This document shows, piece after piece, positions 2,998 through 59,687 of a stretch of DNA of 64,000 nt. Numbering within the stretch: position 1 is the first letter of the stretch; each line of letters opens with the position of its first letter. Position numbers and translations under genes: made by a program. The stretch comes from a virus. The notes beneath the pieces are model-generated. The model made no database searches. It saw nothing but the letters and a program-made list of their open reading frames with translations, and was not told the origin of the DNA. The stretch is taken from positions 1 to 64,000 of the IMG/VR virus record IMGVR_UViG_3300009129_001478. One strand, given 5' to 3'.

Positions 2998-3036
2998 CTA
3001 TTTATAGGTAGTCATATTTTCAAGGAGAAAATAAAC

Positions 3037-3330
3037 ATGTCACAATATGAAATTACAAAAACACGGTTGGCACAAATTATCAAAGAAGAGTATGAAGCTC
3101 TGAGTGGAGCCAATGCTTTGACCCGCACAATCCATCGCTGGGCAGAAGAGGCAAAGGATATTCCTGTACACTTGACTGTTGCCCGCATGATTGAGAATGG
3201 TGATCTTGATTCAGCCATTGAGACACTTGAGGCTATGCGCGACGTAGCCGACGCTCCGGTGGAAGAGCAGCAGAAAGGGCCTGTGAACTCTATTCGCGAC
3301 ATGATCCGACAAGAAGTGAAGAATTTGTAA
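3037..3330 (+). CDS. Small protein with IIKEE leader
   Basis: EITKTRLAQIIKEE; AAGGAG SD; CTATTTAT upstream. Confidence 0.6.
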   Translation: MSQYEITKTRLAQIIKEEYEALSGANALTRTIHRWAEEAKDIPVHLTVARMIENGDLDSAIETLEAMRDVADAPVEEQQKGPVNSIRDMIRQEVKNL

Positions 3331-3333
3331 TAA

Positions 3334-3750
3334 ATGAATCCTAAGCTCTCGCCCGCACAAATAGAAATCTTGGTCGGTAGTTCTGCGGTCAATAATGAGT
3401 TCTCCAACAAAGTGAGGGAACTTTCTCGCAGGCTGCAACTGAACCAATTAGAATATAATATGTGGGATACCCTGACAGACCAGCAGCATGATATATTTTC
3501 TGGAGATTTATTTCTAGATGGAACGTGCGCTAGTAGTCCTAAAGATTATGTCCTGGGTGCGGTAGAGTCCTGCGGATGCCCCGACGTAGAGGAAGATCTA
3601 TATCATCACTCTCCTGCTTTGATGGGAGAAATAGAAAAACAACAACGACTCTCTGGCGGCGAAGACGTTCATCTTTCTGAGGCAGTGCAAAGACTAGATG
3701 AAACTGTTGGCTCTGTAATTGATGACGTACTAACAGAGCTTTTAACTTAA
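3334..3750 (+). CDS. Hypothetical protein
   Basis: ORF in operon context. Confidence 0.55.
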   Translation: MNPKLSPAQIEILVGSSAVNNEFSNKVRELSRRLQLNQLEYNMWDTLTDQQHDIFSGDLFLDGTCASSPKDYVLGAVESCGCPDVEEDLYHHSPALMGEIEKQQRLSGGEDVHLSEAVQRLDETVGSVIDDVLTELLT

Positions 3751-3766
3751 CAGAAAGCGAGGCAGG

Positions 3767-4555
3767 GTGAAATCCCTACTAAGATATCCGGGCGGCAAGT
3801 CCAGAGCTTTAAAGCACATTATACCTTATTTCCCAAAAAACCTGACAGAAATTGTCAGCCCTTTTTTCGGCGGCGGGTCAATAGAGATTCACTACGCATC
3901 TCAGGGTGTCCGAGTTCATGGCTATGATATATTTGAGCCTCTTGTAAATTTTTGGCAGCAGGTTTTGGAACACCCTCATGATATTGCAAACATGCTAGAG
4001 AATTACTTTTACCCCTGTACTAAAAAGATGTTTAAGGAATATCAAAAGCAGCATGCATCTACCGAGGGTGACGCCACTCTTTTGTTTTGGCGAGAGATGC
4101 GCGCTTGCATGTTCTATGCCCTCAATCGCTCTTCGTTTAGCGGGGCAACTATGAGCGGAGGATACTCAAAACAGGCAGCGGAGAAGAGGTTTACCCAAAG
4201 CAGCATTGATCGCCTTAGAAATTTTGTATGTCCTGCTCTAACTGTGGAGCAGGCAGACTTCGCTGACAGCCTTGGAAGACACAACGATGAAACTTTTATC
4301 TACGCTGACCCACCATATCTTTTGGAAAAGTCTACTCTATACGGTGAAAGGGGCTCAACTCACAAGGACTTTGATCACCAAAGGTTTGCGGAAGAAATAA
4401 AAAAGAAAAACAACTGGGTGATATCATATAATCCTCACCCTGAAATATTAGAACTATACAAAGATTATGAAATCGTATATCCTGAGTGGAGTTACGGTAT
4501 GTCTTCAGACAAAAAGTCTAAGGAAATACTAATCTTGAACGTGAAGGAGAATTAG
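3767..4555 (+). CDS. dam: Dam-like (D12 class) N6-adenine DNA methyltransferase
   Basis: LRYPGGKS, SPFFGGGS, YADPPY, ISYN. Confidence 0.9.
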   Translation: MKSLLRYPGGKSRALKHIIPYFPKNLTEIVSPFFGGGSIEIHYASQGVRVHGYDIFEPLVNFWQQVLEHPHDIANMLENYFYPCTKKMFKEYQKQHASTEGDATLLFWREMRACMFYALNRSSFSGATMSGGYSKQAAEKRFTQSSIDRLRNFVCPALTVEQADFADSLGRHNDETFIYADPPYLLEKSTLYGERGSTHKDFDHQRFAEEIKKKNNWVISYNPHPEILELYKDYEIVYPEWSYGMSSDKKSKEILILNVKEN

Positions 4556-5108: not shown

Positions 5109-6695
<1,587 letters not shown>

Positions 6696-10073: not shown

Positions 10074-10676
10074 ATGATTTGGAAGATGGGAATCTCCCCG
10101 CTTATCAAAGACGTGGAACTCCGAAAATATCCGGTAATTGTGCGCGTGAACAAATTTGATGAGAAGAGCGCGACCGAGTTTACTGCAAAAATGGCAGCAG
10201 CCCACAGCACCGGACAAAAAGTTATTCCTGTTATTATTGATTCCTATGGGGGACAAGTATATTCCCTCATGTCAATGATTGCAGTCATTAAGGCGTCGGA
10301 GTTACCGGTAGCAACCATCGTAGAGGGCAAGGCAATGTCGTGCGGTGCAGTTCTTTTATCCTGCGGTGAGCAGGGCTTACGTTTTGCCGATCCAGATGCT
10401 ACTGTAATGATTCATGACGTGAGCAGCGGCGGCTGGGGAAAGATAGAAGAATTAAAAGCAGACGTTGCTGAAGCCGAAAGGCTTGATGAGAAGATATTTA
10501 CTATGATGGCTCGTAACTGCGGAAAGAAAGACGACTACTTCAAGAAAAAGGTTTTTAATAAAAAACATGCTGACTGGTTTATGGATGCCCAGGAAGCAAA
10601 GAAACATGGACTTGTCAATCACCTTAGAGTACCTAAGCTCGCTGTAAAGGTAGATGTGGACATAGATTTTGAATAA
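10074..10676 (+). CDS. clpP: ClpP-family protease subunit
   Basis: IDSYGG, AMSCGA (Ser), MIHD (His), DWFMDAQEA (Asp). Confidence 0.88.
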   Translation: MIWKMGISPLIKDVELRKYPVIVRVNKFDEKSATEFTAKMAAAHSTGQKVIPVIIDSYGGQVYSLMSMIAVIKASELPVATIVEGKAMSCGAVLLSCGEQGLRFADPDATVMIHDVSSGGWGKIEELKADVAEAERLDEKIFTMMARNCGKKDDYFKKKVFNKKHADWFMDAQEAKKHGLVNHLRVPKLAVKVDVDIDFE

Positions 10677-40704: not shown

Positions 40705-40777
40705 AGGGACATAGCTCAGTTGGTAGAGCAACAGACTTTTAATCTGATGGTCGTGGGTTCAATCCCCACTGTCCCCA
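40705..40777 (+). tRNA. tRNA-Lys(UUU)
   Basis: TAGCTCAGTTGGTAGAGC D-arm, CTTTTAA loop, GGTTCAATCC; A1-C72 mismatch; CCA not encoded. Confidence 0.9.
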
Positions 40778-40785
40778 CAACAGGA

Positions 40786-41400
40786 ATGACAATGATTAAA
40801 GTACTCGGAAAGTTGCCAAGAGAATTAGCCGTCGCCGTCAGCGGCGGTCCAGATTCCATGGCTATTCTAGACTTCTTAAGTAATAATCATGATGTGACCG
40901 CTGTCTATTTTGACCACGGCACAGACTTCGGGCGGAAATGTAAAAGATTTGTAAAGAACTTTTGCGATAGTAAAGAAATTCCCGTTATTATCGGCATAAA
41001 TTATAACGGTCGCGACCGCCAGAAATCACAAGAAGAACACTGGCGAGATGAGCGCTATAAATTCTTTCACAGCTTTGACATGCCAGTTGTTTCTGGTCAC
41101 AATTTAGACGATGTGATAGAGTGGTATTTGTTCTCTTCAATTAACGGACATGGGAAAGTTATCCCCTACAACAATAAAAACGTTATTAGACCGTTTATCT
41201 CTACTTCTAAACGAACGCTGGAAAGCTGGTGTAACAAAAAGGAAATACCATTCTTAGTAGATCCTGCCAACATTGATAGAAAATTTATGAGAAGTATTAT
41301 CAGACATGATATTATACCACATGCCCGATTAATAAACCCAGGAATGGAAAAAACATTCCGTAAGCTTGTAGAGAAGGAATATGAGAATGTGTGTTCATGA
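40786..41400 (+). CDS. tilS: tRNA(Ile)-lysidine synthetase, catalytic domain only
   Basis: AVSGGPDS PP-loop, R.ERY.F, GHNLDD, IRP, DPAN, RS.IRH.IIP. Confidence 0.88.
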   Translation: MTMIKVLGKLPRELAVAVSGGPDSMAILDFLSNNHDVTAVYFDHGTDFGRKCKRFVKNFCDSKEIPVIIGINYNGRDRQKSQEEHWRDERYKFFHSFDMPVVSGHNLDDVIEWYLFSSINGHGKVIPYNNKNVIRPFISTSKRTLESWCNKKEIPFLVDPANIDRKFMRSIIRHDIIPHARLINPGMEKTFRKLVEKEYENVCS

Positions 41401-41998
41401 GAGAATTTTTGAAAATAAGAATCTGAAAGAATATATCAACCGCTCGCTTCATAACAATTGGCGAGGCACATATTTTGAAGATTATCCTAGAATGGACCCC
41501 AAACAAAAAGGGCACTTTGGTGAAGAATATGTTGAAGGGTTTATGGAACTGGAATTAGGTGCAGAAGTTGTTGCTCCAACCAACCCTGGGCATGATCGGA
41601 TTATTGACGGCTACAAAACGGAGATCAAATTCTCTTTAGCCAATTCAGTTCGGACCAAGGATGGTGATAAACTGATTCAGCCTGATACTTTTACTTTCAA
41701 TCATATTGCTGCTGAAAAAGATTGGGATCGGTTTATTTTCTTTGGAATCAACCCATATCACGATCAAGGTAACCAAATCCTTTCAGAAAAAAACAGGATG
41801 GAAAAACCCCCACTTATCCGAGCATACTGGATGGAAAAGAATGATTTCTTAAACTATATCATTCAAGCTGACCGTAAGCCGTTCCGAAAACAACAAGGCG
41901 GAGAGAAATCCAACAACGATGATTATATCGTCCCAGGGTTGGAAAATTTCTACAAATTGATTGATCTGCCGTTTATCAAAGAGATTAATTCATGGTAG
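41381..41998 (+). CDS. Putative PD-(D/E)XK restriction endonuclease
   Basis: KGHFGE...HDRIIDG..EIKFS; adjacent to a methyltransferase. Confidence 0.6.
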   Translation: MRMCVHERIFENKNLKEYINRSLHNNWRGTYFEDYPRMDPKQKGHFGEEYVEGFMELELGAEVVAPTNPGHDRIIDGYKTEIKFSLANSVRTKDGDKLIQPDTFTFNHIAAEKDWDRFIFFGINPYHDQGNQILSEKNRMEKPPLIRAYWMEKNDFLNYIIQADRKPFRKQQGGEKSNNDDYIVPGLENFYKLIDLPFIKEINSW

Positions 41999-42019
41999 AA
42001 TACTACTCATGGAGCAACT

Positions 42020-42913
42020 ATGATTTATCATATTGATGTTGTTGATGGTCTCCGGAAATTAGAGTCTGAGAGTGCTGACTGTATTATTGTTGACCCGCCG
42101 TATAACATCGGCAAAGATTACGGCAATAACAAAACAGAACTAGAGACTTCAGAATATGTTTCCTGGGCTAAACAATGGCTGGCAGAATGCGAACGAGTTC
42201 TGAAGCCCGAGGGAACGCTGTATATTTATGGCTTCTCAGAAATCCTCGCACACCTGTCAGTGAATATCAATATGAATAAGCGTTGGCTAATCTGGCATTA
42301 TACAAATAAGACAGTTCCCAGCTTAAACTTTTGGCAAAGAACTCACGAATCTATTTTGTGTTGCTGGAAAGAGCAGAAAACCTTCTTCAGGGATCAAGTA
42401 AGAATTCCATATACTGAAACGTTTCTCAAAAATGCAGCGGGCAAAAAAAGGAAAAATACAAAAGGACGCTTTGGCAACAAAGAAAGCACCTATACAGCCC
42501 ACGAAAAGGGAGCACTTCCAAGAGATGTTATTTGCTCTCCATCTTTGGCTGGTGGTGCTGGTTTGAAAGAAAGATTCTTTTATTCTCCTTCCCGCGAAAA
42601 GCTGTATACCTCTAAGCAGAAAAAAGCTCTCGTTGTGGATGATACGATTTCACATCCCACTCAGAAGCCGACGAAGGTAACAGAAATTCTTTTGGATGCC
42701 TGCATTGAAGAAGGAAGTTCAGCAACGGTTGTTGTGCCATTTGCTGGCACTGGCAGCGAATGTTATGTTTGTGAGCAGCGTGGTTATGAGTGGACAGCAT
42801 TTGAAATCAATGAAGAATTTGTAGATATGGGAAATCTGTTGGTGAAAGATGGGTTTCCAAACAACAAAGAAGAGGAACTGATAGAATACGATTATTGTGG
42901 GCCTGTATCATAA
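42020..42913 (+). CDS. N4/N6 DNA methyltransferase (beta class)
   Basis: DPPYN, HPTQKP, PFAGTGS. Confidence 0.9.
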   Translation: MIYHIDVVDGLRKLESESADCIIVDPPYNIGKDYGNNKTELETSEYVSWAKQWLAECERVLKPEGTLYIYGFSEILAHLSVNINMNKRWLIWHYTNKTVPSLNFWQRTHESILCCWKEQKTFFRDQVRIPYTETFLKNAAGKKRKNTKGRFGNKESTYTAHEKGALPRDVICSPSLAGGAGLKERFFYSPSREKLYTSKQKKALVVDDTISHPTQKPTKVTEILLDACIEEGSSATVVVPFAGTGSECYVCEQRGYEWTAFEINEEFVDMGNLLVKDGFPNNKEEELIEYDYCGPVS

Positions 42914-42975
42914 TTGGTTAATGAAACCGCCTCATAAGCGGTTATATCGGGGTTCAAGTCCCTGCGGGCCTACCA
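42899..42975 (+). tRNA. tRNA with CAU anticodon, probably tRNA-Ile2 (TilS substrate)
   Basis: ACCGC-CTCATAA-GCGGT; C4-G69 and C5-G68 pairs, A73; encoded CCA. Confidence 0.85.
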
Positions 42976-42977
42976 AA

Positions 42978-43054
42978 GGACCAGTAGCTCAGTTGGATAG
43001 AGCAACAGCCTTCTAAGCTGTCGGTCGCAGGTTCAAATCCTGCCTGGTTCGCCA
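42978..43054 (+). tRNA. tRNA-Arg(UCU)
   Basis: Cloverleaf with CTTCTAA loop; CCA. Confidence 0.93.
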
Positions 43055-43056
43055 TT

Positions 43057-43132
<76 letters not shown>

Positions 43133-43133
43133 A

Positions 43134-43166
43134 GCCTCATCTTCGGGTGGGGCTTTTTTATTTTTT
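43134..43166 (+). terminator. Intrinsic terminator
   Basis: GCCTCATC-TTCG-GGTGGGGC plus T tract. Confidence 0.8.
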
Positions 43167-43201
43167 ACGATCCCTTAAAACTATGTATAATAGAACACGA
43201 A

Positions 43202-43277
43202 GGGGAGTTAGCTCATCTGGTAGAGCGCCTGCTTTGCACGCAGGGGGTGATCGGTTCGACTCCGATACTCTCCACCA
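43202..43277 (+). tRNA. tRNA-Ala(UGC)
   Basis: CCTGC-TTTGCAC-GCAGG; G3-U70; CCA. Confidence 0.95.
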
Positions 43278-43330
43278 TAGAGTGCGATTCTAGCACACGA
43301 CCTGAGCATGTCACAAAACTGCTTATATTT

Positions 43331-43418
43331 GGAAGGATGACCGAGAGGCCGATGGTGCAGCATTGGAAATGCTGTGTGGGGTAACCCACCGAGGGTTCGA
43401 ATCCCTCTCCTTCCTCCA
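43331..43418 (+). tRNA. tRNA-Ser(GGA)
   Basis: CAGCA-TTGGAAA-TGCTG; long variable arm; CCA. Confidence 0.92.
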
Positions 43419-49720: not shown

Positions 49721-52700
49721 ATGGGTGGTGTCGCTGGTCACATGGACCATCTCTATGACAACAGAAGTCTAACATTTGGTAAGATGAAGGAGATTATAAA
49801 AGCCGCGGCGGATGCCGAGCTTACTGCCGAAGAAAAGGTAGACGGACAAAATCTCTTTCTTTCTTATTCTATTCCTGATGCTAAAGCCAAAGGAGCCAGA
49901 AATAAAGGAAATTTAATGGCCGGAGGTTTAGACGCCGTTGGATTAGCCACAAAATTTGCCGGTAGAGGTGGATTAGAAAAAGCTTTTACAGGAGGCTTTG
50001 ATGCTTTTGAAAGAGCGGTTGAGGCTCTTTCGGATGAAGAAAAGCTAAAAGTTTTCGGACCAGATACAAATATTTGGTATAACGCAGAAATTATGGATCC
50101 TGGCACCGAGGGGGATAAAAATGACCCCGGATCAGTTAATGTGATTAAATATGATAACAAAACTTTGAAGATCCACGGTGTTGGTCATTTCCGTTTTGAC
50201 AGAGAGACAGGGGAAAGGTTGCCCATCCCTGATGGTTCATTAGAAACTATTGATAATTCTTTAGACAGAATGCAAAATCAGTTGTCTGGTCATCCTTTTT
50301 CTATTGCTCGTAAGGCAATTATCCAATTACAAAAATTAGAAGATGAAGAGGCTTTAATTAAGACAATCTCCCGAATCAATAAAGAAATATCCGACCACCA
50401 ATTGAATGATGAGTCCACGATGATAGATTATATGTTTTCTCGTTTATCAAATGGTATGGATACCGACTTGCCTAATAATTTAAAAGATGAAATTGTCAAG
50501 TATCTTTTAAAGCTTCCCGGCAATATTGGACTGAGGGCTCTCAAAAAAGGATTATCGCCACATGATCTACAAGATTTGAATAATATTATCAATTCTAGAA
50601 AATCATTGTTATTACAAGCTATTGAGCCCCTGGAAATAACTATACATGATTTTGCAGTTGAATTACTAAAAGGTTTGGATAGTGTTTTCATAGCTGACAG
50701 AGATGCCGAGGTTATCCGTCTTAGAGATGAGCTAGCCACAGCAGTTCGCGAATTGACAGCGAGAGGTCCCGAAGATCCCGCGGCAATGGAAGTGATGCAA
50801 AGACATTTGAATAAAATCAAAGACTTTTCACAAATTACTACTCCTGTTGAGGCTGTGGTTTTTGATTATGATGGTCATACATATAAATTTTCTGGTAATT
50901 TTGCGCCGCTGAATCAAATTCTTGGAATGTTTAAGTTTGGTGGAAGAACCCCTGCTCCTGTACAGAAAGAAAGTGTATCTTATAACAGAACCATTCTAAA
51001 AGAAGATGAAGGAAATATTAAGAGAGAAAAAGCAAAACAATTTGTTCTCTCGCTTCCTAAATTTGTACCAACTGAGGCTTGGGGTGATCCTGCTTCTATG
51101 GAAAGAAAACAAATTCAAAAGATATTTGATACTGTCGGTGGGGGTGCCACAATACAAGAAAAGCTTGCATTCCTAAACGATAGTATTGAAAATCCTCGCG
51201 GTGGTATTCGTTCACCACGAAGAATTATTAGCACTCTTATCTTATTAGAATCTTTATCAGCAGTCATTAGAAGCTTCAATTCTGCCTCTGCTGGCTTTGT
51301 TTTTGAGGGATTCTTATCAGCACTATTTCGTGGAAGACAAGAAGCTGAAGTGAGTGAAAAAGGAAATCTACCTATTCAAGATCTTATTGCCTTTTCAGAA
51401 CTTGAGGATGCAAAACCAGTCCCTATTAGTCTCAAATTATTAAACCAAACAACCAAGATTGAAGGAAGTTATACTAATCTTGTTGATTCTCTAGAAGAGT
51501 TTGGACAAATGGTATATATCGTTGCTAGAAAAGATGGTGATAAAATTGCTTTAGAAAAATTCACTTTTACAAGAGATAATTTTATAAATGCAATTATTGC
51601 ATCTGCTACTGGAGGCACCACAAAGGAATCTGACTTATTTACTTTGCCTCCTACGGTTGCGCGCACAACTGAAAATTCCATCAAAAGGCTTAATAAGTTA
51701 AAAGGTGATGCCAACTGGGCAGAAAAATATAAACTCTTACAAATGACAAAGGGCTATAGGAATAGAAAAAAGGTCCCTCCTGTACCAGATGAAACTGTTA
51801 CAATTTCCGATGAACTGCCGGATGGAACTGATATAAAACCTCAACAGCTAGCGGCTCATAGAGTCTACACTGTGGAAGAAAATAAGAGACTTCTCTCGGA
51901 GGGATTATTATTAGAGCGCTCCGGTGGTACCCAGTGGTCTATTAGCCCCCAACAACTTAAGGCTATTTCTAGAAACTTGGATTACGAGACTCTAGGAACA
52001 CTACCAATCTCCACAGAAAGAGTGGTTGACATTGCCGAACAATATATGGAATTCTTATCTGATAATTTACAAAGAGTTTTTGATGCAACCTCTAAGTTGT
52101 CTGAAAATATAAGTGACTATTTCACCTATCAAGATAGAAGTCAGGCTATTGGTGCCGGACAAAAAGCAATTGAAGAATCTAAAATTGTTGCTGACGAGAT
52201 GACTCAGCAGATTTCTCAGGATACGAGCGTCCCAGGACAACGCAATGAATCTGTTCAACATCTCGTTGAGGAAAAAGGTAAAAGAATTGCATTGTTTCCC
52301 GGCAAGTTCAAGCCACCTCATAAAGGTCACTACGAGTTCGTAAATCAAGTGGCTAAAAGATCTGATGTAGATAATGTAATAGTTTTGATTAGCCCTGTGG
52401 ATAAAGCAGAGGTCTCTGCCGAGGAATCTTTAGAGATATGGTCTAGGTTTCTATCTTCCCCTGACGCATCACCTAATATAAGCGTAGATATCGCAGATTA
52501 TAGAAGTCCTGTAACTACGGTATATGAATTTTTAGCTGATCCTGTAAAGTCAAGACCAAAAGACACTATCCTACTAATCAAGAGCAGTAAGGACGAGGGT
52601 GATGCCCGTTTTCAGAATGCTAAAGCATATGCCGAAAGACATAACCCAGGAGTTTCCGTAGAAGAAATAGAAGAAGACCCGATCACATCCTCTACCGGTG

Positions 52701-53023
52701 TAGTATTCAGCGCTGAAGATTTGCGTGAGTTTATTACCGCAAATAAAAAAGAAGAATTCCTTAGTTATATGCCCGACAGTATTGACGGTGAAGAAATTTG
52801 GAGAATATTCAAGCCAATGGATCAGGTTGATTCTGAGATTGATAATGCAATAGAGGAAATGTCTAGCATGGCTGGTGGCAGCATAGGTGGCTCTGCCTCT
52901 GCGCCGGCCGCTGGCGCGCCACTTGGTTCGCCAGGTTATGCGCCGGCTTCTTTTCCGAAGAAAAGACGCAAAAAAAGCACGAAACCTAAAGTAAATCGTC
53001 CCAAACGTCAAAGACGAAGATAA
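49721..53023 (+). CDS. Multi-domain protein: ligase-like KxDG domain, PD-(D/E)XK-like domain, HxGH cytidylyltransferase-like domain
   Basis: GHMDH...EEKVDGQN; GFVFEGFLSAL...IQD...ISLK; FPGKFKPPHKGH. Confidence 0.65.
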   Translation: MGGVAGHMDHLYDNRSLTFGKMKEIIKAAADAELTAEEKVDGQNLFLSYSIPDAKAKGARNKGNLMAGGLDAVGLATKFAGRGGLEKAFTGGFDAFERAVEALSDEEKLKVFGPDTNIWYNAEIMDPGTEGDKNDPGSVNVIKYDNKTLKIHGVGHFRFDRETGERLPIPDGSLETIDNSLDRMQNQLSGHPFSIARKAIIQLQKLEDEEALIKTISRINKEISDHQLNDESTMIDYMFSRLSNGMDTDLPNNLKDEIVKYLLKLPGNIGLRALKKGLSPHDLQDLNNIINSRKSLLLQAIEPLEITIHDFAVELLKGLDSVFIADRDAEVIRLRDELATAVRELTARGPEDPAAMEVMQRHLNKIKDFSQITTPVEAVVFDYDGHTYKFSGNFAPLNQILGMFKFGGRTPAPVQKESVSYNRTILKEDEGNIKREKAKQFVLSLPKFVPTEAWGDPASMERKQIQKIFDTVGGGATIQEKLAFLNDSIENPRGGIRSPRRIISTLILLESLSAVIRSFNSASAGFVFEGFLSALFRGRQEAEVSEKGNLPIQDLIAFSELEDAKPVPISLKLLNQTTKIEGSYTNLVDSLEEFGQMVYIVARKDGDKIALEKFTFTRDNFINAIIASATGGTTKESDLFTLPPTVARTTENSIKRLNKLKGDANWAEKYKLLQMTKGYRNRKKVPPVPDETVTISDELPDGTDIKPQQLAAHRVYTVEENKRLLSEGLLLERSGGTQWSISPQQLKAISRNLDYETLGTLPISTERVVDIAEQYMEFLSDNLQRVFDATSKLSENISDYFTYQDRSQAIGAGQKAIEESKIVADEMTQQISQDTSVPGQRNESVQHLVEEKGKRIALFPGKFKPPHKGHYEFVNQVAKRSDVDNVIVLISPVDKAEVSAEESLEIWSRFLSSPDASPNISVDIADYRSPVTTVYEFLADPVKSRPKDTILLIKSSKDEGDARFQNAKAYAERHNPGVSVEEIEEDPITSSTGVVFSAEDLREFITANKKEEFLSYMPDSIDGEEIWRIFKPMDQVDSEIDNAIEEMSSMAGGSIGGSASAPAAGAPLGSPGYAPASFPKKRRKKSTKPKVNRPKRQRRR

Positions 53024-53043: not shown

Positions 53044-53838
53044 ATGATCAACAGAAAAACCTTAGTAGCCGAACAGTTGATTCGCGAATATGTGCGCGAA
53101 AAACTAAAAGAACGTCTTGGTAACATCCATAGGCAAGAGGCTCACTTGAGGGCTGCCATCAGAACTTTAATTGTAGAAGCTGAGACAGGAACAGAAGAGC
53201 CCAGCACATACACAGGTATTAACGTTTTGGCAGATTTGTTGAGAAATATTATCCCCACAGTTCAAGATGATTACATGATGCTCACAACATCTAAGGAACA
53301 GAGAGATTCTTTTCGTAACCACTTGATCCATGCTGTCAAAGATTCCTTGAGACCTATTGAAATAACTACTGATGCTGAAGATCTGGAAGTATCTGAAAAT
53401 ATAGAGTATAAAATTGACAAAACTTTGTTGACTGAGAAAGTTGTGGTAGATATTGACGACGGTGAAGAAGAACTAGAGTCTCTAGAGGGCGAATTCATTG
53501 ATATTGAAGAAGAAGAGGAGGATGAGTTCGTTCAAATAGAAGATCAGAACGAGACAGGTAGAAACTTTGCCGCCGATTCTTTTAAGAGAGTTGAAAAACA
53601 GATCGTAGATGCCTATGACATGCTGGCAGACAACCAAGATAGAGACCTGTTTTACGATTATCTCATTACAAACTTACTTCTCTATTTTGATAAGTTTGAA
53701 AACGATCTGGCGAACACACTCCCAGATGTAACCACTCCCGAATATGAAGCGGAAAAAGAAAAAGAAGATTTAGATCAAATTGAAGATCTTGCTGCCGAAG
53801 AGGCAGAGGAAGAATTTGAACTAGATTTAGAAATTTAA
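53044..53838 (+). CDS. Acidic protein with LIRE/LIVE motifs
   Basis: EQLIREYVRE...LRAAIRTLIVE; acidic tracts. Confidence 0.6.
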   Translation: MINRKTLVAEQLIREYVREKLKERLGNIHRQEAHLRAAIRTLIVEAETGTEEPSTYTGINVLADLLRNIIPTVQDDYMMLTTSKEQRDSFRNHLIHAVKDSLRPIEITTDAEDLEVSENIEYKIDKTLLTEKVVVDIDDGEEELESLEGEFIDIEEEEEDEFVQIEDQNETGRNFAADSFKRVEKQIVDAYDMLADNQDRDLFYDYLITNLLLYFDKFENDLANTLPDVTTPEYEAEKEKEDLDQIEDLAAEEAEEEFELDLEI

Positions 53839-53926: not shown

Positions 53927-53955
53927 TTGACAAGTACTGCGTCATATTGTATAGT
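53927..53955 (+). promoter_or_regulatory. Sigma70 promoter for tmRNA
   Basis: TTGACA-N17-TATAGT. Confidence 0.75.
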
Positions 53956-53964
53956 CTTATATAC

Positions 53965-54291
53965 GGGGGTAACAGGTATCGATTGATGGGAAAGTAAAAA
54001 CGGTGCAAGGGTGAGGGAAGCGGGGCTCACTAAAAACGCTTATCTAATAATCGCAGCTTAAAAACGATTATACAAAAAACATCAGCAGCTTAAAAACCTG
54101 ACTATGTTTGAGGCGGTGGCAGCCAATAAACAGAAAGCTACGCTATGTTTCTAAGTGCTTTTGATTGTTTTGGCCGGAATAAAACGATCTAGTCAAGTGG
54201 TCTGTCCGACGAAAAAAACAGCTCTAACCTTGTGAATGACCTTTTTATGGAACTAGACAAGACGGGAGTTCGAATCTCCCTACCTCCACCA
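53965..54291 (+). ncRNA. ssrA: tmRNA
   Basis: GGGGGTA/TACCTCC-ACCA acceptor with G3-U70, T-arm GGGAGTTCGAATCTCCC, PK1 (GTGAG/CTCAC, AAGCG/CGCTT), H5-like hairpin. Confidence 0.92.
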
Positions 54292-54316
54292 GCCGCCTTC
54301 GGGCGGCTTTTTCTTT
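54292..54316 (+). terminator. Intrinsic terminator
   Basis: GCCGCC-TTCG-GGCGGC-TTTTTCTTT. Confidence 0.88.
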
Positions 54317-54358
54317 GTTGAATCAACTAGATATTAAAGTAGACAAGGAGGTCATAAA

Positions 54359-55660
54359 TTGACCAAAACAGTGTTATTAGATACAAATGTTTTATTAACT
54401 GAAGTTCAGTCTATTTTATCGTTCGGAAAAAACAACATCGCCATTCCGACAATTGTTTTAGATGAAATAGATAAGCATAAGCACAGACAAGATACACCGG
54501 GACTAAATGCCCGCATTACCAACAGATTCCTAGATGAACTAAGAGAAAAGGGTAGTCTCCTGAGTGGAGTATCTCTGGGACGAAGTAAAGGAAAGATATT
54601 TGCCGCGCAGTTTGATAAAGAATATATCCCTGATGGTATGAATCCAGACGATTCGGATAATAAGATAATTGCCACCGCCCTCAAGCTCATATCAGAAAAA
54701 CAAGAAGTTACAGTAATTTCTAGGGATATCAACATGCGGGTCAAATGTGATTCATTTGGGATTCCATGTCAAGATTACCATCCTGAAAAAGTAATCAGTT
54801 CGGTCAAAAACCTTTACGACGGTGCCTCAGTTATTGAAGTAGACGAAGATCTTATAAACGATTTTTATGCCGGCAAATCTACTTATATGCCGAAAGAATT
54901 GGGGCTTTTCCCTAATCAATTTGTTTTACTAAAAAGCCAGAGTAGTTCTAAATCTGCTGTTTGTGGATATAAAAACCCAAACACGCCCTTGGCAAAAATA
55001 AACAAATACAAAAACATATGGGGATTATCGGCAAAAAATAAAGAACAAGATTTCGCCATGAATCTTTTATTCAATCAAGACATACAAATAGTGTCAATGA
55101 CCGGTCCTGCCGGAACGGGAAAGACATTACTGGCAGCGGCTTGTGGATTAGAACAGGTTGTCAATAAATCTAAAACATCCGGAGGGTACGACAAGCTCAT
55201 TATTACCCGACCAGTACAACCCATGGGAAGAGACATTGGGTTTCTGCCCGGTACTCTAGAAGAAAAGATGTCCCCATGGATCGCTCCTTTGCGCGATAAT
55301 TTAGAGCACCTTTACGGCGACCGTATGGCACTTGATATGCAGATAGAACAAGGAATTATTGAGATAGAAGCAATGACTTTTATCCGAGGCAGATCTATAG
55401 CAAATGCATTCATAATAGTAGATGAAGCGCAGAATTTAACAGCCCATGAGTTAAAGACTATAATTACACGAGTGGGACATGGGACAAAACTCATTTTGAC
55501 TGGAGATGTTCAACAGATAGACAATTCTTATGTTGATGCTGTCTCAAATGGGCTTACTCATGCTGTGGAAAAATTCAAAAACTATGAAATCTCCGGACAT
55601 GTTACTCTATACAAAGGCGAACGCTCCAAATTGGCAACATTAGCAGCGAAGATATTATGA
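54359..55660 (+). CDS. phoH: PIN plus PhoH ATPase (PhoH2/YlaK-like)
   Basis: LDTNVLL PIN; GPAGTGKT, IGFLPG, FIRGRS, DEAQN. Confidence 0.92.
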   Translation: MTKTVLLDTNVLLTEVQSILSFGKNNIAIPTIVLDEIDKHKHRQDTPGLNARITNRFLDELREKGSLLSGVSLGRSKGKIFAAQFDKEYIPDGMNPDDSDNKIIATALKLISEKQEVTVISRDINMRVKCDSFGIPCQDYHPEKVISSVKNLYDGASVIEVDEDLINDFYAGKSTYMPKELGLFPNQFVLLKSQSSSKSAVCGYKNPNTPLAKINKYKNIWGLSAKNKEQDFAMNLLFNQDIQIVSMTGPAGTGKTLLAAACGLEQVVNKSKTSGGYDKLIITRPVQPMGRDIGFLPGTLEEKMSPWIAPLRDNLEHLYGDRMALDMQIEQGIIEIEAMTFIRGRSIANAFIIVDEAQNLTAHELKTIITRVGHGTKLILTGDVQQIDNSYVDAVSNGLTHAVEKFKNYEISGHVTLYKGERSKLATLAAKIL

Positions 55661-56318: not shown

Positions 56319-57158
56319 ATGGCCGGCAAACACATTTCCTACTCGGAGTGGAAGAATTGGCATATTTGCCCCCACTATCATAAGCTCACTTATATTGACA
56401 AGGTTGCTCAATTTGAGGGCAATATTTACACAGCTTTCGGAAAGGCTCTTCATACCGTTTGTGAATTTACTTTGACTTCCCCCGAAAAATACAGGGAAGC
56501 GGGTGCGATTGATGCGTTAGTTAAAGAGCAATTTATTGCGGAACTCAACGCTCTGCCCGAGAGTGAGCAGCAGGTAGCCAAGCGTGATTTTAACCTCAAA
56601 GAGTGGCTTGTAAGTGGACTGGAAATCGTTCCCGACCTTTATCGCTGCCTGACCGAGAAGTTCGGCAAGTTGGGCGAGGACTGGGAAGTATTATCCGCAG
56701 AGGAACAACTCTATGAGCCCATCACAGAATTTACCGAAGCAGAAAAAAACTTTAAAGGTTTTATTGACTTGGTGGTTTTTTCCAAGAAAGATGAAAAGAT
56801 TCATTTGATTGATTGGAAAACTTGTTCATGGGGATGGAAGCCCAGGAAGAAGAGTGATACCATCCTTGCTTATCAGTTGGTATTTTATAAGCATTTTTAC
56901 GCTCGTAAATATGAAGTGAATCCGAAAGAAATAGATTGTCATTTTGTTTTACTTAAACGAACAGCCAAGCCCGGCAAGAAAGCGGAATTCGTGCGGGTAA
57001 CAGCAGCGAAAAAAAGAACAACAGACGCACTTAACGCCTTGACAAAAGCACTGCATAATATCAATAAGGAAAATTATATCAAAAATCGCAATGCCTGTAC
57101 AGATTGTAAGGATCGTTTCGGAACGTGCGAATTCTATATGACAGAGTATTGTAGTTAG
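56319..57158 (+). CDS. PD-(D/E)XK RecB/Cas4-like exonuclease
   Basis: ISYS...CP, FG.ALH, GFIDLV, IDWKT, QL.FY, C-terminal Cys cluster. Confidence 0.88.
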   Translation: MAGKHISYSEWKNWHICPHYHKLTYIDKVAQFEGNIYTAFGKALHTVCEFTLTSPEKYREAGAIDALVKEQFIAELNALPESEQQVAKRDFNLKEWLVSGLEIVPDLYRCLTEKFGKLGEDWEVLSAEEQLYEPITEFTEAEKNFKGFIDLVVFSKKDEKIHLIDWKTCSWGWKPRKKSDTILAYQLVFYKHFYARKYEVNPKEIDCHFVLLKRTAKPGKKAEFVRVTAAKKRTTDALNALTKALHNINKENYIKNRNACTDCKDRFGTCEFYMTEYCS

Positions 57159-57165
57159 GAAAAAT

Positions 57166-58416
57166 ATGTCCGATAAAATAAAGGTTATGACAATCAGCGA
57201 TCACCCACTTCTGCCATCGGGTGTGGGTACTCAAACAAAATATATGATTGAGGCGCTTATAAAATCTGGTAAATTTGAAGTTTTTTCATTAGGGGGTGCC
57301 ATGAAGCATCCCAGTTATAATTTAATGAGACATCAAGAAAATTGGGATATTTTACCTGTAGATGGATATGGTGAAAAAAACCAAGTTTTAGGGTTAATCA
57401 ACCAAATACGACCAGATATGTTATGGTTTATGACAGATCCACGCTATTATGAGTGGTTATGGGATTTTGAAGAAGACATTCGCCACAATATTCCCATGGT
57501 TTACTATCATGTTTGGGACAATTATCCGTTCCCGATGTTCAATAAGCGATATTATGATTCAAATGATGTGGTTGCTACCATCTCAAAAGTAACAAGCGAT
57601 ATTGTTCAAAATGTTTCACCGGACGTTGAGGAGATTTATATTCCTCATGCAGTCCCGATGAAGATATTCAAAACACCAACAAAATCAAAAGTAAATCAAG
57701 TATTCCAGAATAACCCTAAGTTGAAGGATAAATTCATCTTTTTCTGGAACAATAGAAATGCGAGAAGAAAACAAAGCGGGACTCTGATATTATGGTTCAG
57801 CGAATTTCTGAAACAAGAACATGTAGATGAGAAAAACACATGTCTTATTATGCATACAAAAACAGATGACCCGCATGGACAGCCTTTGGAATATTTAGCA
57901 GAAAGTAACAATCTTGTTTCCGGTGAGATTATTTTCTCAAAACAGTCTTTACCGACAGAAGATCTGGCAATGTTATATGGAATTGCCGACTGCACTATCA
58001 ATATCTCAGATGCCGAAGGCTTTGGTTTGGCAACTTTGGAATCTCTTTCAAGCGAAACTCCAATTATTGTAACGATGACTGGTGGACTTCAAGAGCAGGT
58101 GACTGACGGCGAGAATTGGTTTGGAATAGGCATTGAGCCAGCCTCCAAAGCTCTCATCGGCTCTCAGCAGGTTCCCTACATTTTTGAAGACCGGATTTCA
58201 AAGGAATCTTTCATTGATGCGCTCAATCAAATTTATGCCATGACTCCCAAAGAAAGAGCAGATCTAGGGAAAAAAGGTAGAGAACATGTCATGAAAAACT
58301 ACAATTTTGAAGATTATGGAACAACCTGGGTTAAAGTACTCCAAGAAGTCCACGAAAAGTACGGATCGTGGGAAACTCGTAAGAATTATAAGCCATGGAG
58401 AATGACGGAAATATGA
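57166..58416 (+). CDS. Glycosyltransferase (GT4-like)
   Basis: SGVG, NRNARRK, EGFGLATLE. Confidence 0.88.
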   Translation: MSDKIKVMTISDHPLLPSGVGTQTKYMIEALIKSGKFEVFSLGGAMKHPSYNLMRHQENWDILPVDGYGEKNQVLGLINQIRPDMLWFMTDPRYYEWLWDFEEDIRHNIPMVYYHVWDNYPFPMFNKRYYDSNDVVATISKVTSDIVQNVSPDVEEIYIPHAVPMKIFKTPTKSKVNQVFQNNPKLKDKFIFFWNNRNARRKQSGTLILWFSEFLKQEHVDEKNTCLIMHTKTDDPHGQPLEYLAESNNLVSGEIIFSKQSLPTEDLAMLYGIADCTINISDAEGFGLATLESLSSETPIIVTMTGGLQEQVTDGENWFGIGIEPASKALIGSQQVPYIFEDRISKESFIDALNQIYAMTPKERADLGKKGREHVMKNYNFEDYGTTWVKVLQEVHEKYGSWETRKNYKPWRMTEI

Positions 58417-59687
58417 CGAAACAAAAGAAAATCTTAATCATAGGCTCTTTCTGCAATATCAGCGGATATAGTGACCATGCACGACTCATAGCAGATGCTT
58501 TCATTCAGCACCCTGGCAACCACACATTACATCTCATAGATCTCCAGTGGGCTGAGGCTACGAGAACTCCTGAATACTCCGAGAAGTATTTGCCTTATAT
58601 TCAACATACTCAAGAATACCTAAAGTTCCTGAAGTCTACAAACACTTCAATGGCTGCCGGCTTTGACTGCTGTTTTCAGGTGCGCCCTCCTAACGAGTGG
58701 CACAGAGTTACCAACTATGATATAGGGGTGACAGCCGCTTTAGAAACTGTGGCTGCCCCTGAAGAGTGGATTCCTAATTGCAACATGATGCAGCAGATTC
58801 TTGTGGTTTCACAGCATTCTAAGAAAAACCTTTTGAATGCCGTTCACAGCCAGAGTAAGGAAAAAATTAGGACGCCTATTGAGGTCGTTCCTTTCTATAA
58901 TAACCTTCCTCTGGAAAGAGAAAAATTTTCCGGCTACGAGGGGCTCTCAACTAATAAAAATTTCTTGTGCGTGTCTCAATTTGCTCCTCGGAAAAATCTG
59001 TTTAGAATGATGCACCTGTTCCTTGATGAATTCGGTGATGATGAAGATGTAGGGCTTGTCCTTAAAACATATATGAGAAACAATAGTCACATAGATTATT
59101 ACAACATCTCTGCGATGTTGAAAAAATTTGTGAATGATATAAAACCAAACAAGAAGTGTAAAATACATCTTATACACGGCAGTCTTACTCAAAATGAAAT
59201 GGCATCACTATATGATGCCGAAGTCATAGATGCTTATATTTCACTGACCCATGGCGAAGGATTCGGAATACCTATTTTCAATGCTGTTTGTTCAGACATT
59301 CCAGTAGTTGCTCCTTCTTGGTCTGGTCATATGGATTATCTCAAAGCTCCTGTAATCAATCCAACTAGTGGCAAGGCGAAAACGAAAAACCTCTTTCTCA
59401 AAACAGGTTATGACTTGGGAGAGGTGAGAGAAGAACATCTGATGCCCGACCTTATCACCCAGGGAGCAAAATGGTGTTATCCTAATGAAAAACAATTCCG
59501 TAAAAATATTAGAACTGCTATAACATCAACTTCTTTATGCAAAAAAGAGGCTAAGATTTTAGGGGAACACATTAGAAAAGAATATACACAAGAAAAAATT
59601 AACCAGATGTATTATGATGTAATAGATGCTATTGGAGAAATAGATGCTGCGGGAGAAACCGACAACGCACAAATATTTGAATTGTAA
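58413..59687 (+). CDS. Glycosyltransferase (GT4-like)
   Basis: SGY..HAR, RKN, HGEGFGIP. Confidence 0.85.
   Translation: MTKQKKILIIGSFCNISGYSDHARLIADAFIQHPGNHTLHLIDLQWAEATRTPEYSEKYLPYIQHTQEYLKFLKSTNTSMAAGFDCCFQVRPPNEWHRVTNYDIGVTAALETVAAPEEWIPNCNMMQQILVVSQHSKKNLLNAVHSQSKEKIRTPIEVVPFYNNLPLEREKFSGYEGLSTNKNFLCVSQFAPRKNLFRMMHLFLDEFGDDEDVGLVLKTYMRNNSHIDYYNISAMLKKFVNDIKPNKKCKIHLIHGSLTQNEMASLYDAEVIDAYISLTHGEGFGIPIFNAVCSDIPVVAPSWSGHMDYLKAPVINPTSGKAKTKNLFLKTGYDLGEVREEHLMPDLITQGAKWCYPNEKQFRKNIRTAITSTSLCKKEAKILGEHIRKEYTQEKINQMYYDVIDAIGEIDAAGETDNAQIFEL

Follow-up and report, generated by a model that had tools for sequence, protein, structure and literature searches.

A full-length tmRNA with a tag frame reduced to two alanine codons in an uncultured marine phage

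tmRNA performs two jobs, namely, the freeing of the ribosome and the marking of the unfinished protein for destruction, and laboratory mutants have established that these jobs are separable. The locus described herein raises the question of what becomes of the two jobs when a phage keeps the RNA whole and its tag frame closes after two codons. The window, i.e., the whole analysed stretch of 64,000 nucleotides, was taken from the start of an IMG/VR virus record of 97.6 kb with a CheckV completeness of approximately 48%, and its source is an uncultured marine large phage.

Identity of the gene and reading of its tag frame

The locus was identified as a one-piece tmRNA gene (ssrA) based on its match to Rfam RF00023, which spans the model end to end (positions 1-374) with a score of 67.5 bits against the gathering cut-off of 47 (Table 1). 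The Rfam alignment, which an earlier note on this DNA had suggested as a check, thus bore out the proposal of a phage tmRNA. The second short-tag gene found in this study, L048, scored 72.2 bits, and relatives having the canonical tag scored 81-94 bits. ARAGORN, the other program suggested in that note, returned no call for the window gene at default settings and, at lowered thresholds, a single wrong call with "Tag not identified". The RNA did not fall into the DS6A-type TLD-only/mini-tmRNA class, having a length of 327 nt, a resume codon, a stop codon, helix 5, and four pseudoknots. Since every structural feature was found, the gene was filed as a tmRNA that is a variant only in the length of its tag frame. 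In other words, it is a full-length phage tmRNA whose tag frame is reduced to two alanine codons.

The predicted promoter matched the consensus at 11 of 12 positions, was the top-scoring site of the region, and ends nine bases 5' of the mature RNA. Its -35 hexamer was also present in L048 and in L007, a relative with the canonical tag, as was the predicted terminator hairpin behind the gene. Flanked by these two elements, the tmRNA gene would constitute a self-contained transcription unit. No smpB gene was found in the 97.6-kb record (approximately 48% complete), and a DNA search of the phage collection gave no similar record.

Table 1. Features of the tmRNA locus and of other genes in the window (positions are those of the window).
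Feature	Position	Strand	Description
GroEL-type chaperonin	5109-6695		2.4e-66
ClpP-family protease	10074-10676		Pfam 1.2e-29; next to an SLT lysozyme domain and an RNase H-like protein; no obvious head genes adjacent
Six tRNA genes	40705-43418		Lys UUU, Met/Ile CAU, Arg UCU, Thr UGU, Ala UGC, Ser GGA (ARAGORN)
tRNA-Ala(UGC)	43202-43277		Reads the tmRNA resume codon
Sigma-70-type promoter, predicted	53927-53955	+	-35 TTGACA, 17-nt spacer, -10 TATAGT
One-piece tmRNA (ssrA)	53965-54291	+	Mature RNA of about 327 nt, 3' CCA; Rfam RF00023
Acceptor stem, 5' strand	53965-53971	+	Pairs with 54281-54287; alanine-identity G3.U
Pseudoknot 1	54011-54041	+	Two 5-bp stems, 98.8% and 100% of cells paired
Frame-setting bases T-A-A-T-C	54048-54052	+	Equivalents of E. 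coli U85-A86-G87-U88-C89
Two-codon tag frame and stop, GCA GCT TAA	54053-54061	+	GCA 54053-54055, GCT 54056-54058, TAA 54059-54061
7-nt insertion versus canonical relatives	54056-54062	+	From alignments; copies the tag end and makes the early stop
Former tag region, now untranslated	54063-54093	+	Ancestral last two Ala codons and stop at 54085-54093
Helix 5	54077-54109	+	11 bp, two bulges; MFE fold and family covariation
Pseudoknot 2	54112-54141	+	Both-side changes in 1 of 3 pairs of stem 1 and 4 of 5 of stem 2
Pseudoknot 3	54157-54188	+	Compensatory change in 5 of 7 long-stem pairs; one covarying pair in the short stem
Pseudoknot 4	54192-54224	+	Compensatory change in 4 of 5 pairs; second stem invariant
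T-arm, acceptor 3' strand, ACCA end	54264-54291	+	Top posterior probability in Rfam
Intrinsic terminator, predicted	54291-54318	+	7-bp stem with 6 G-C pairs, then T-run; begins at the last CCA base
PIN-PhoH (PhoH2-type) gene	54359-55660	+	Pfam PhoH 2.2e-52, PIN_4 9.5e-25; next gene downstream of the tmRNA

The GCA at 54053 was aligned to the consensus resume codon of the Rfam model with high posterior probability and is homologous to the resume codon called by ARAGORN in the relatives. The critical A, whose E. coli counterpart A86 sets the frame from four bases 5' of the resume codon (PMC2481249), occupies the same position in the window tmRNA. The canonical-tag relatives L003, L030, L020, and L021 have exactly the same frame-setting bases, the T-A-A was invariant in the family alignment, and all five bases 5' of the resume codon were invariant or nearly so among the 33 aligned family members. 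The likeness of the upstream context to the E. coli resume site, claimed in the earlier note, was confirmed by the T-A-A-T-C match, and the reading of GCA GCT TAA after a conserved context also stood, the two codons before TAA being read directly from the sequence. Its order of pseudoknot 1 and resume GCA was likewise correct, but the pseudoknot, for which the end had been given as 54040, actually ends at 54041.

A tag of ordinary length comprises 10 codons in E. coli and 11 in this family, and has non-polar residues at its end and the stop in the helix 5 loop; the window frame is shorter, and its stop lies upstream of helix 5. Long ORFs of the window end most often with TAA (23 of 47 on the + strand), and reading of the early TAA as a sense codon was rejected on this ground. 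No suppressor tRNA was found by ARAGORN among the six tRNA genes of the window.

The 7-nt insertion that makes the early stop duplicates the end of the old tag, from its last Ala codon through the stop to one base beyond. It lies between GCA and AAC, and the same triplets flank the identical 7 nt at 54088-54094. A 13-nt string spanning these triplets occurs exactly twice in the window (54053-54065 and 54085-54097) against 0.01 expected by chance, and two matches were obtained in none of 100 shuffles. The copies start 32 nt apart, so that the second is out of frame, and this second copy lies in the helix 5 hairpin, all of which had been correctly described from the letters alone. The former tag region was homologous to the A-N-D-D...A-A frame of the relatives, from which it is distinguished by a 3-nt loss, a 1-nt gain, and many substitutions. 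The family alignments also substantiated two further proposals, namely, that the second copy is what is left, in helix 5, of the ancestral tag end, and that AAC GAT between the copies is a trace of the ancestral tag, as it descends from the A-N-D-D start of the family.

Canonical-tag relatives and origin of the short-tag allele

Two sets of relatives were collected from IMG/VR. A protein search with PIN-PhoH yielded 43 viral contigs of up to approximately 179 kb, and about 35 of these 43 loci were found to have an alignable, syntenic tmRNA just upstream. A search with the invariant pseudoknot 1 of the family yielded 46 contigs, all of which encode an 11-codon tag that starts from the homologous GCA and ends with Ala-Ala; the commonest tag was ANDDFQLAQAA, and thirteen variants were found. 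The short frame is thus derived and unusual within the family, and a two-codon tag as the general mode of the family was not supported. Canonical alleles such as L003 and L007 share with the window gene the synteny, promoter, terminator, pseudoknot 1, and frame-setting bases, with an overall identity of 83-85%. They differ in that their tag has 11 codons and terminates within the helix 5 loop; the window allele has the 7-nt insert, a drifted tag region, and a longer helix 5.

ARAGORN called 24 of the 35 relatives, with tags starting at the homologous GCA. Eight of the 35, all having canonical tags (L036, L026, L029, L031, L045, L014, L015, and L011), were missed, as were both short-tag genes; L014, the only one of the eight tested with Rfam, scored 81 bits. 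Since this program is used in large phage surveys, the variety of phage tmRNAs is probably under-counted.

Both the window and about 35 related viral contigs carry PIN-PhoH directly 3' of the tmRNA (in L003-L045, at about 3001-4300), a linkage that is partly a product of fetching the loci through PIN-PhoH. An RNase/ATPase beside a rescue RNA could form a module that cuts the mRNA and recycles the ribosome. Upstream of the tmRNA, proteins of 1100 aa (49721-53023) and 264 aa (53044-53838) are encoded, whose syntenic counterparts in L048 have 1071 aa and 258 aa, and for which Pfam gave no match at E <= 0.001. Two adjacent GT4-type glycosyltransferase genes (57166-59687) follow a PD-(D/E)XK nuclease gene (56319-57158). 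In the host search, the closest PhoH proteins in cultured phages were at most 37% identical, the tRNA-like 3' end of the tmRNA matched genomes of many phyla, and full-length matches in bacteria were weak even at best, with an unclassified MAG at 42.7 bits and a Bdellovibrionales MAG at 27.9 bits. The family is a sizeable uncultured marine group with a conserved tmRNA-PIN-PhoH order and no close cultured relative.

A gapped pattern composed of the 3' arm of pseudoknot 1, 4-14 bases, and the early-stop string was run over metagenome contigs, where it retrieved one true family member, L048, together with five chance matches in unrelated coding sequence; the same pattern had no match in viral contigs. 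The exact window variant had no match in either viral or metagenome contigs, and no full-length sequence of the kind postulated as ancestral to the short allele (tag start A-N-D-Y) was found. L048 is a 6-kb contig from a separate assembly, that of sample Ga0209348, and has the same gene order as the window and GCA GCT TAA at the same place, and its flanking genes show approximately 70% DNA identity to those of the window. The absence of the early TAA from homologs, which the earlier note had named as a refutation of its reading, was thus observed in all homologs but this one, which shares the early stop, and it follows that the allele persists.

The existence of L048 also bears on whether the duplicated 13-mer is a mis-assembly or sequencing artefact, a suspicion that arises when one metagenomic contig alone contains a short direct repeat. 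Given that this independent contig carries the same early stop in a diverged context, the assembly duplication contemplated in the earlier note was ruled out as a source of the stop; in addition, a mere duplication would not account for the many substitutions and two further indels that separate the window allele from its canonical relatives. An artefact is accordingly scarcely credible.

The comparison of the two short alleles further addressed whether resumption one base off the GCA might yield a longer tag of 12-13 residues ending with Ala-Ala. Such a frame is indeed open in the window from 54052 to a stop at 54091, as the earlier note had observed for the -1 frame, and E. coli tmRNA is known to be misframed at a low level (PMC2481249). 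L048, however, does not keep that frame and has another open one: counted from the resume codon, the old tag end lies 32 nt away in the window versus 28 nt away in L048. The old frame thus needs a -1 shift in the former and a +1 shift in the latter, and no common frame exists downstream. No single rule gives both shifts, and the longer tag was rejected. The identity of the frame-setting bases to those of the canonical relatives, the lack of conserved residues in the shifted-frame peptides beyond their end, and our own estimate that about 12 open codons are not unusual in AT-rich sequence all argued in the same direction, making this reading very improbable.

In the PhoH tree, the window PhoH fell into a well-supported clade with L003, L004, and L005, all of which have canonical tags, and this clade is different from that of L048, whose PhoH was almost identical to that of the canonical-tag L007. 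Outside the tag region, each short-tag RNA had its nearest relatives among the canonical members of its clade; it is in the tag region alone that the window and L048 are nearest to each other, with derived bases common to both. As the divergence of the tag region from the consensus (34%) was not unusual against the 20-29% of canonical families, the nearest-neighbour distance was used instead. Canonical members showed 0-7 differences, mostly 0-3, from their nearest neighbour in this region, whereas in the two short alleles 15 of 56 columns differed from each other and from every other member.

The simplest account of these sequence relationships would be that the short frame arose once and that related phages then exchanged the tag cassette, although two independent origins by the same templated insertion are conceivable. 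Three canonical tag types (...QLAQAA or ...QLALAA; ...NMEMAA; ANNNAELALAA) formed a mosaic over the PhoH tree, and their mixing suggests that cassette exchange is common in the family. Identical tag cassettes were also observed in RNAs whose bodies differ by 4-12%. These patterns suggest that the tag region may recombine frequently between co-occurring phages of the family. Although rare, the short-tag allele has persisted and is present in two different phage backgrounds, and is thus at least tolerated.

Structural constraint on the RNA

A four-pseudoknot structure comprising the acceptor stem, P2, pseudoknots 1-4, helix 5, and the T-arm was drawn up manually and mapped onto the 33-sequence alignment. 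Standard pairs accounted for 95.9% of the cells, and 30 pairs displayed compensatory change; none of 500 shuffles reached the observed values, and slid controls were only 31-46% paired. The window RNA forms 74 of the 76 family pairs, the two exceptions lying in lower helix 5, where a shifted register pairs instead. Outside the tag region it differed from the family consensus in 9% of columns, and all six pairs touched by these differences were still standard. G-U was found at acceptor position 3 in all 33 sequences, and the cells of the T-arm were 100% paired with three covarying pairs. The stems of pseudoknot 1 were almost invariant, and therefore offered no covariation to count.

Helix 5 has three covarying pairs in the family. 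It is longer in the window than in canonical alleles, and its lower stem is lengthened in L048 too, with a C-G in the window versus a T-A in L048 constituting a compensatory change between the two short alleles. A small hairpin (54047-54071 in the window; columns 90-91 with 103-104 of alignment A1) encloses the frame-setting bases and the resume codon, and the whole two-codon frame lies in its loop. This hairpin covaries in the family (C-G in 27 sequences and U-A in 6) and is 1-2 bp longer in both short-tag alleles. In E. coli, the stabilisation of a comparable pairing was blamed for the loss of activity in the A86C mutant (PMC2481249), and by this precedent the longer hairpin could reduce the activity of the window tmRNA. 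The MFE z-scores of the local hairpins, -1.7 and -1.5, are not significant alone.

The tRNA-like domain with G3.U, the frame-setting bases, pseudoknots 1-4, and helix 5 are thus all intact. Codons would no longer be read in the former tag stretch, which survives as a hairpin, and the remaining RNA appears to be still needed; this is the pattern expected if the early stop is real and old.

These results were weighed against a gene in decay, in which the loss of the tag frame would be the first step of pseudogenisation and the RNA would no longer be useful to the phage. The rarity of the allele (2 of about 50), Rfam scores below those of the canonical relatives, and the failure of ARAGORN on the window gene would be in line with decay. 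It is nevertheless hard to reconcile with the low divergence outside the former tag region, where every changed pair still pairs, and with the intact promoter, terminator, G3.U, CCA end, and four pseudoknots. The compensatory change in helix 5 and the survival of the allele for long enough to accumulate the 15 differing columns likewise argue against it, and we consider decay improbable.

Proposed consequence of the short frame and comparison with known systems

Taken together, the observations favor a derived, rare, and persistent allele that probably still rescues ribosomes and adds only Ala-Ala-Ala to the rescued protein. The ancestral gene would have had the 11-codon A-N-D-D...A-A tag with its stop in the helix 5 loop, as kept in approximately 50 related marine phages, and the 7-nt insertion would then have copied the tag end to just after the resume codon, bringing TAA into the position of the third codon. 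The RNA would be charged with alanine by the host AlaRS, enter the empty A site of a stalled ribosome with SmpB, presumably that of the host, and accept the nascent chain. Translation would resume at GCA 54053 and proceed to GCT, and TAA 54059 would be reached after two elongation steps, as the tRNA-like domain leaves the E site. The ribosome would thereby be freed, and the released protein would end with Ala-Ala-Ala. The viability of engineered H. pylori SsrA with stops after the resume codon indicates that one translocation suffices for rescue (PMC2584231).

Most of the tag would be lost in this way, including everything that an adaptor or a second protease would read, and only the Ala-Ala-COO- end would be left; degradation of the rescued proteins would thus probably be weaker or ClpX-limited. 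Residues of the E. coli tag that are reportedly read by adaptors and other proteases are absent from the short tag. Ala-Ala-COO- is the main ClpX determinant, with about five tag residues contacting ClpX in the recognition complex (PMC7652416), and the alanine tails made by RqcH are ClpXP degrons (PMC8012679). By analogy, some recognition of the Ala-Ala-Ala tail by ClpXP is plausible. The tail proposed in the earlier note, adaptor-independent and altering the fate of rescued proteins, would accord with these published findings. In E. coli, the last two tmRNA codons and their positioning affect the recruitment of RNase R (PMC4176180); the short frame keeps these two codons but at another position. 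The fate of the rescued proteins may accordingly be faster clearance, sparing, or no difference that matters to the phage, among which the sequence cannot decide.

Faster clearance would be expected if the two-codon frame had been selected as a minimal degron, tri-Ala serving as an efficient, adaptor-independent ClpXP signal for quick and cheap removal of the rescued fragments. The precedent of the RqcH tails, the exact retention of the last Ala codon pair and stop by the insertion, the presence of the short allele in two phage lineages that are each most closely related to canonical-tag phages, and the ClpP-family protease encoded by the same phage are all compatible with such selection. On the other hand, all 46 other members keep the long tag, with near-identical cassettes across backgrounds, which argues that selection normally favors the long tag; moreover, about five tag residues are contacted by ClpX on recognition, and two occurrences are too few to infer positive selection. 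A selected degron is thus unlikely, albeit less so than decay of the gene. Neutral tolerance of a truncated tag fits the data equally well as a functional tri-Ala degron, and, with only two carriers in a family of about 50, the allele may also be drifting as a mildly deleterious one. The ClpP-family protease, the GroEL-type chaperonin, and the tmRNA together suggest a proteostasis kit of the phage.

Another feature of the short frame is its possible independence of all tRNAs but tRNA-Ala, in that the RNA itself would carry Ala, both codons specify Ala, and the phage encodes tRNA-Ala(UGC). If this independence were real, which we regard as doubtful and somewhat less probable even than decay, ribosomes would still be recycled under starvation or a host anticodon-nuclease defence that exhausts the tRNAs for Asn, Asp, Phe, Gln, or Leu, i.e., those needed for the normal tag of the family, and the cleaved mRNAs from which these ribosomes are freed would be generated by the PIN-PhoH RNase encoded downstream.

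Returning to the favored reading of rescue with a cut tag, the window allele would represent a natural phage case in which the RNA is kept whole and the tag is cut to the shortest frame still ending with Ala-Ala. Short-tag alleles can evidently last in nature, in more than one phage background, and their occurrence beside 11-codon alleles in closely related phages permits a direct comparison of the benefits of tagging and rescue to the phage.

Compared with E. coli-type SsrA, the window tmRNA has the same tRNA-like domain with G3.U, CCA, long P2, pseudoknots 1-4, and helix 5, as well as the U-A four to five nt before the GCA resume codon. It differs in the length of its tag (2 codons versus 10), in being phage-borne, and in having no SmpB gene in the record. 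Published tmRNA alignments place the stop codons inside the helix 5 loop (PMC1168896), whereas the functional stop of the window tmRNA would lie 32 nt upstream of this loop. Phage-borne ssrA genes are also present in Bxz1-like mycobacteriophages, Bacillus phage G, and huge phages, where they are thought to supplement or redirect host trans-translation (PMC4131195, PMC7162821); the tmRNAs of the huge phages were assigned with ARAGORN (PMC7162821), and no report of a two-codon tag was found in either of these two papers.

The TLD-only tmRNA of mycobacteriophage DS6A is similarly a phage tmRNA derivative that does not add the normal tag, but it consists of little beyond the tRNA-like domain and was proposed to inhibit tmRNA by titrating SmpB (PMC4131195). 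Unlike it, the window RNA is of full length with a resume and a stop codon, and on its sequence should be able to complete the rescue cycle. Tailing by RqcH/RqcP in bacterial RQC likewise places an all-alanine C-terminal tail, read by ClpXP, on an incomplete protein (PMC8012679, PMC7652416); this tailing is template-free and takes place on split 50S subunits, so that the mechanisms are unrelated and the likeness is a functional analogy only. The SsrA-STOP of H. pylori resembles the window tmRNA in that a minimal tag is followed by normal termination, and the mutants carrying it are impaired in stress tolerance and competence (PMC2584231). That SsrA-STOP is a laboratory construct in a bacterium with the tag Ala-Val, whereas the window allele is natural, phage-borne, and ends with Ala-Ala.
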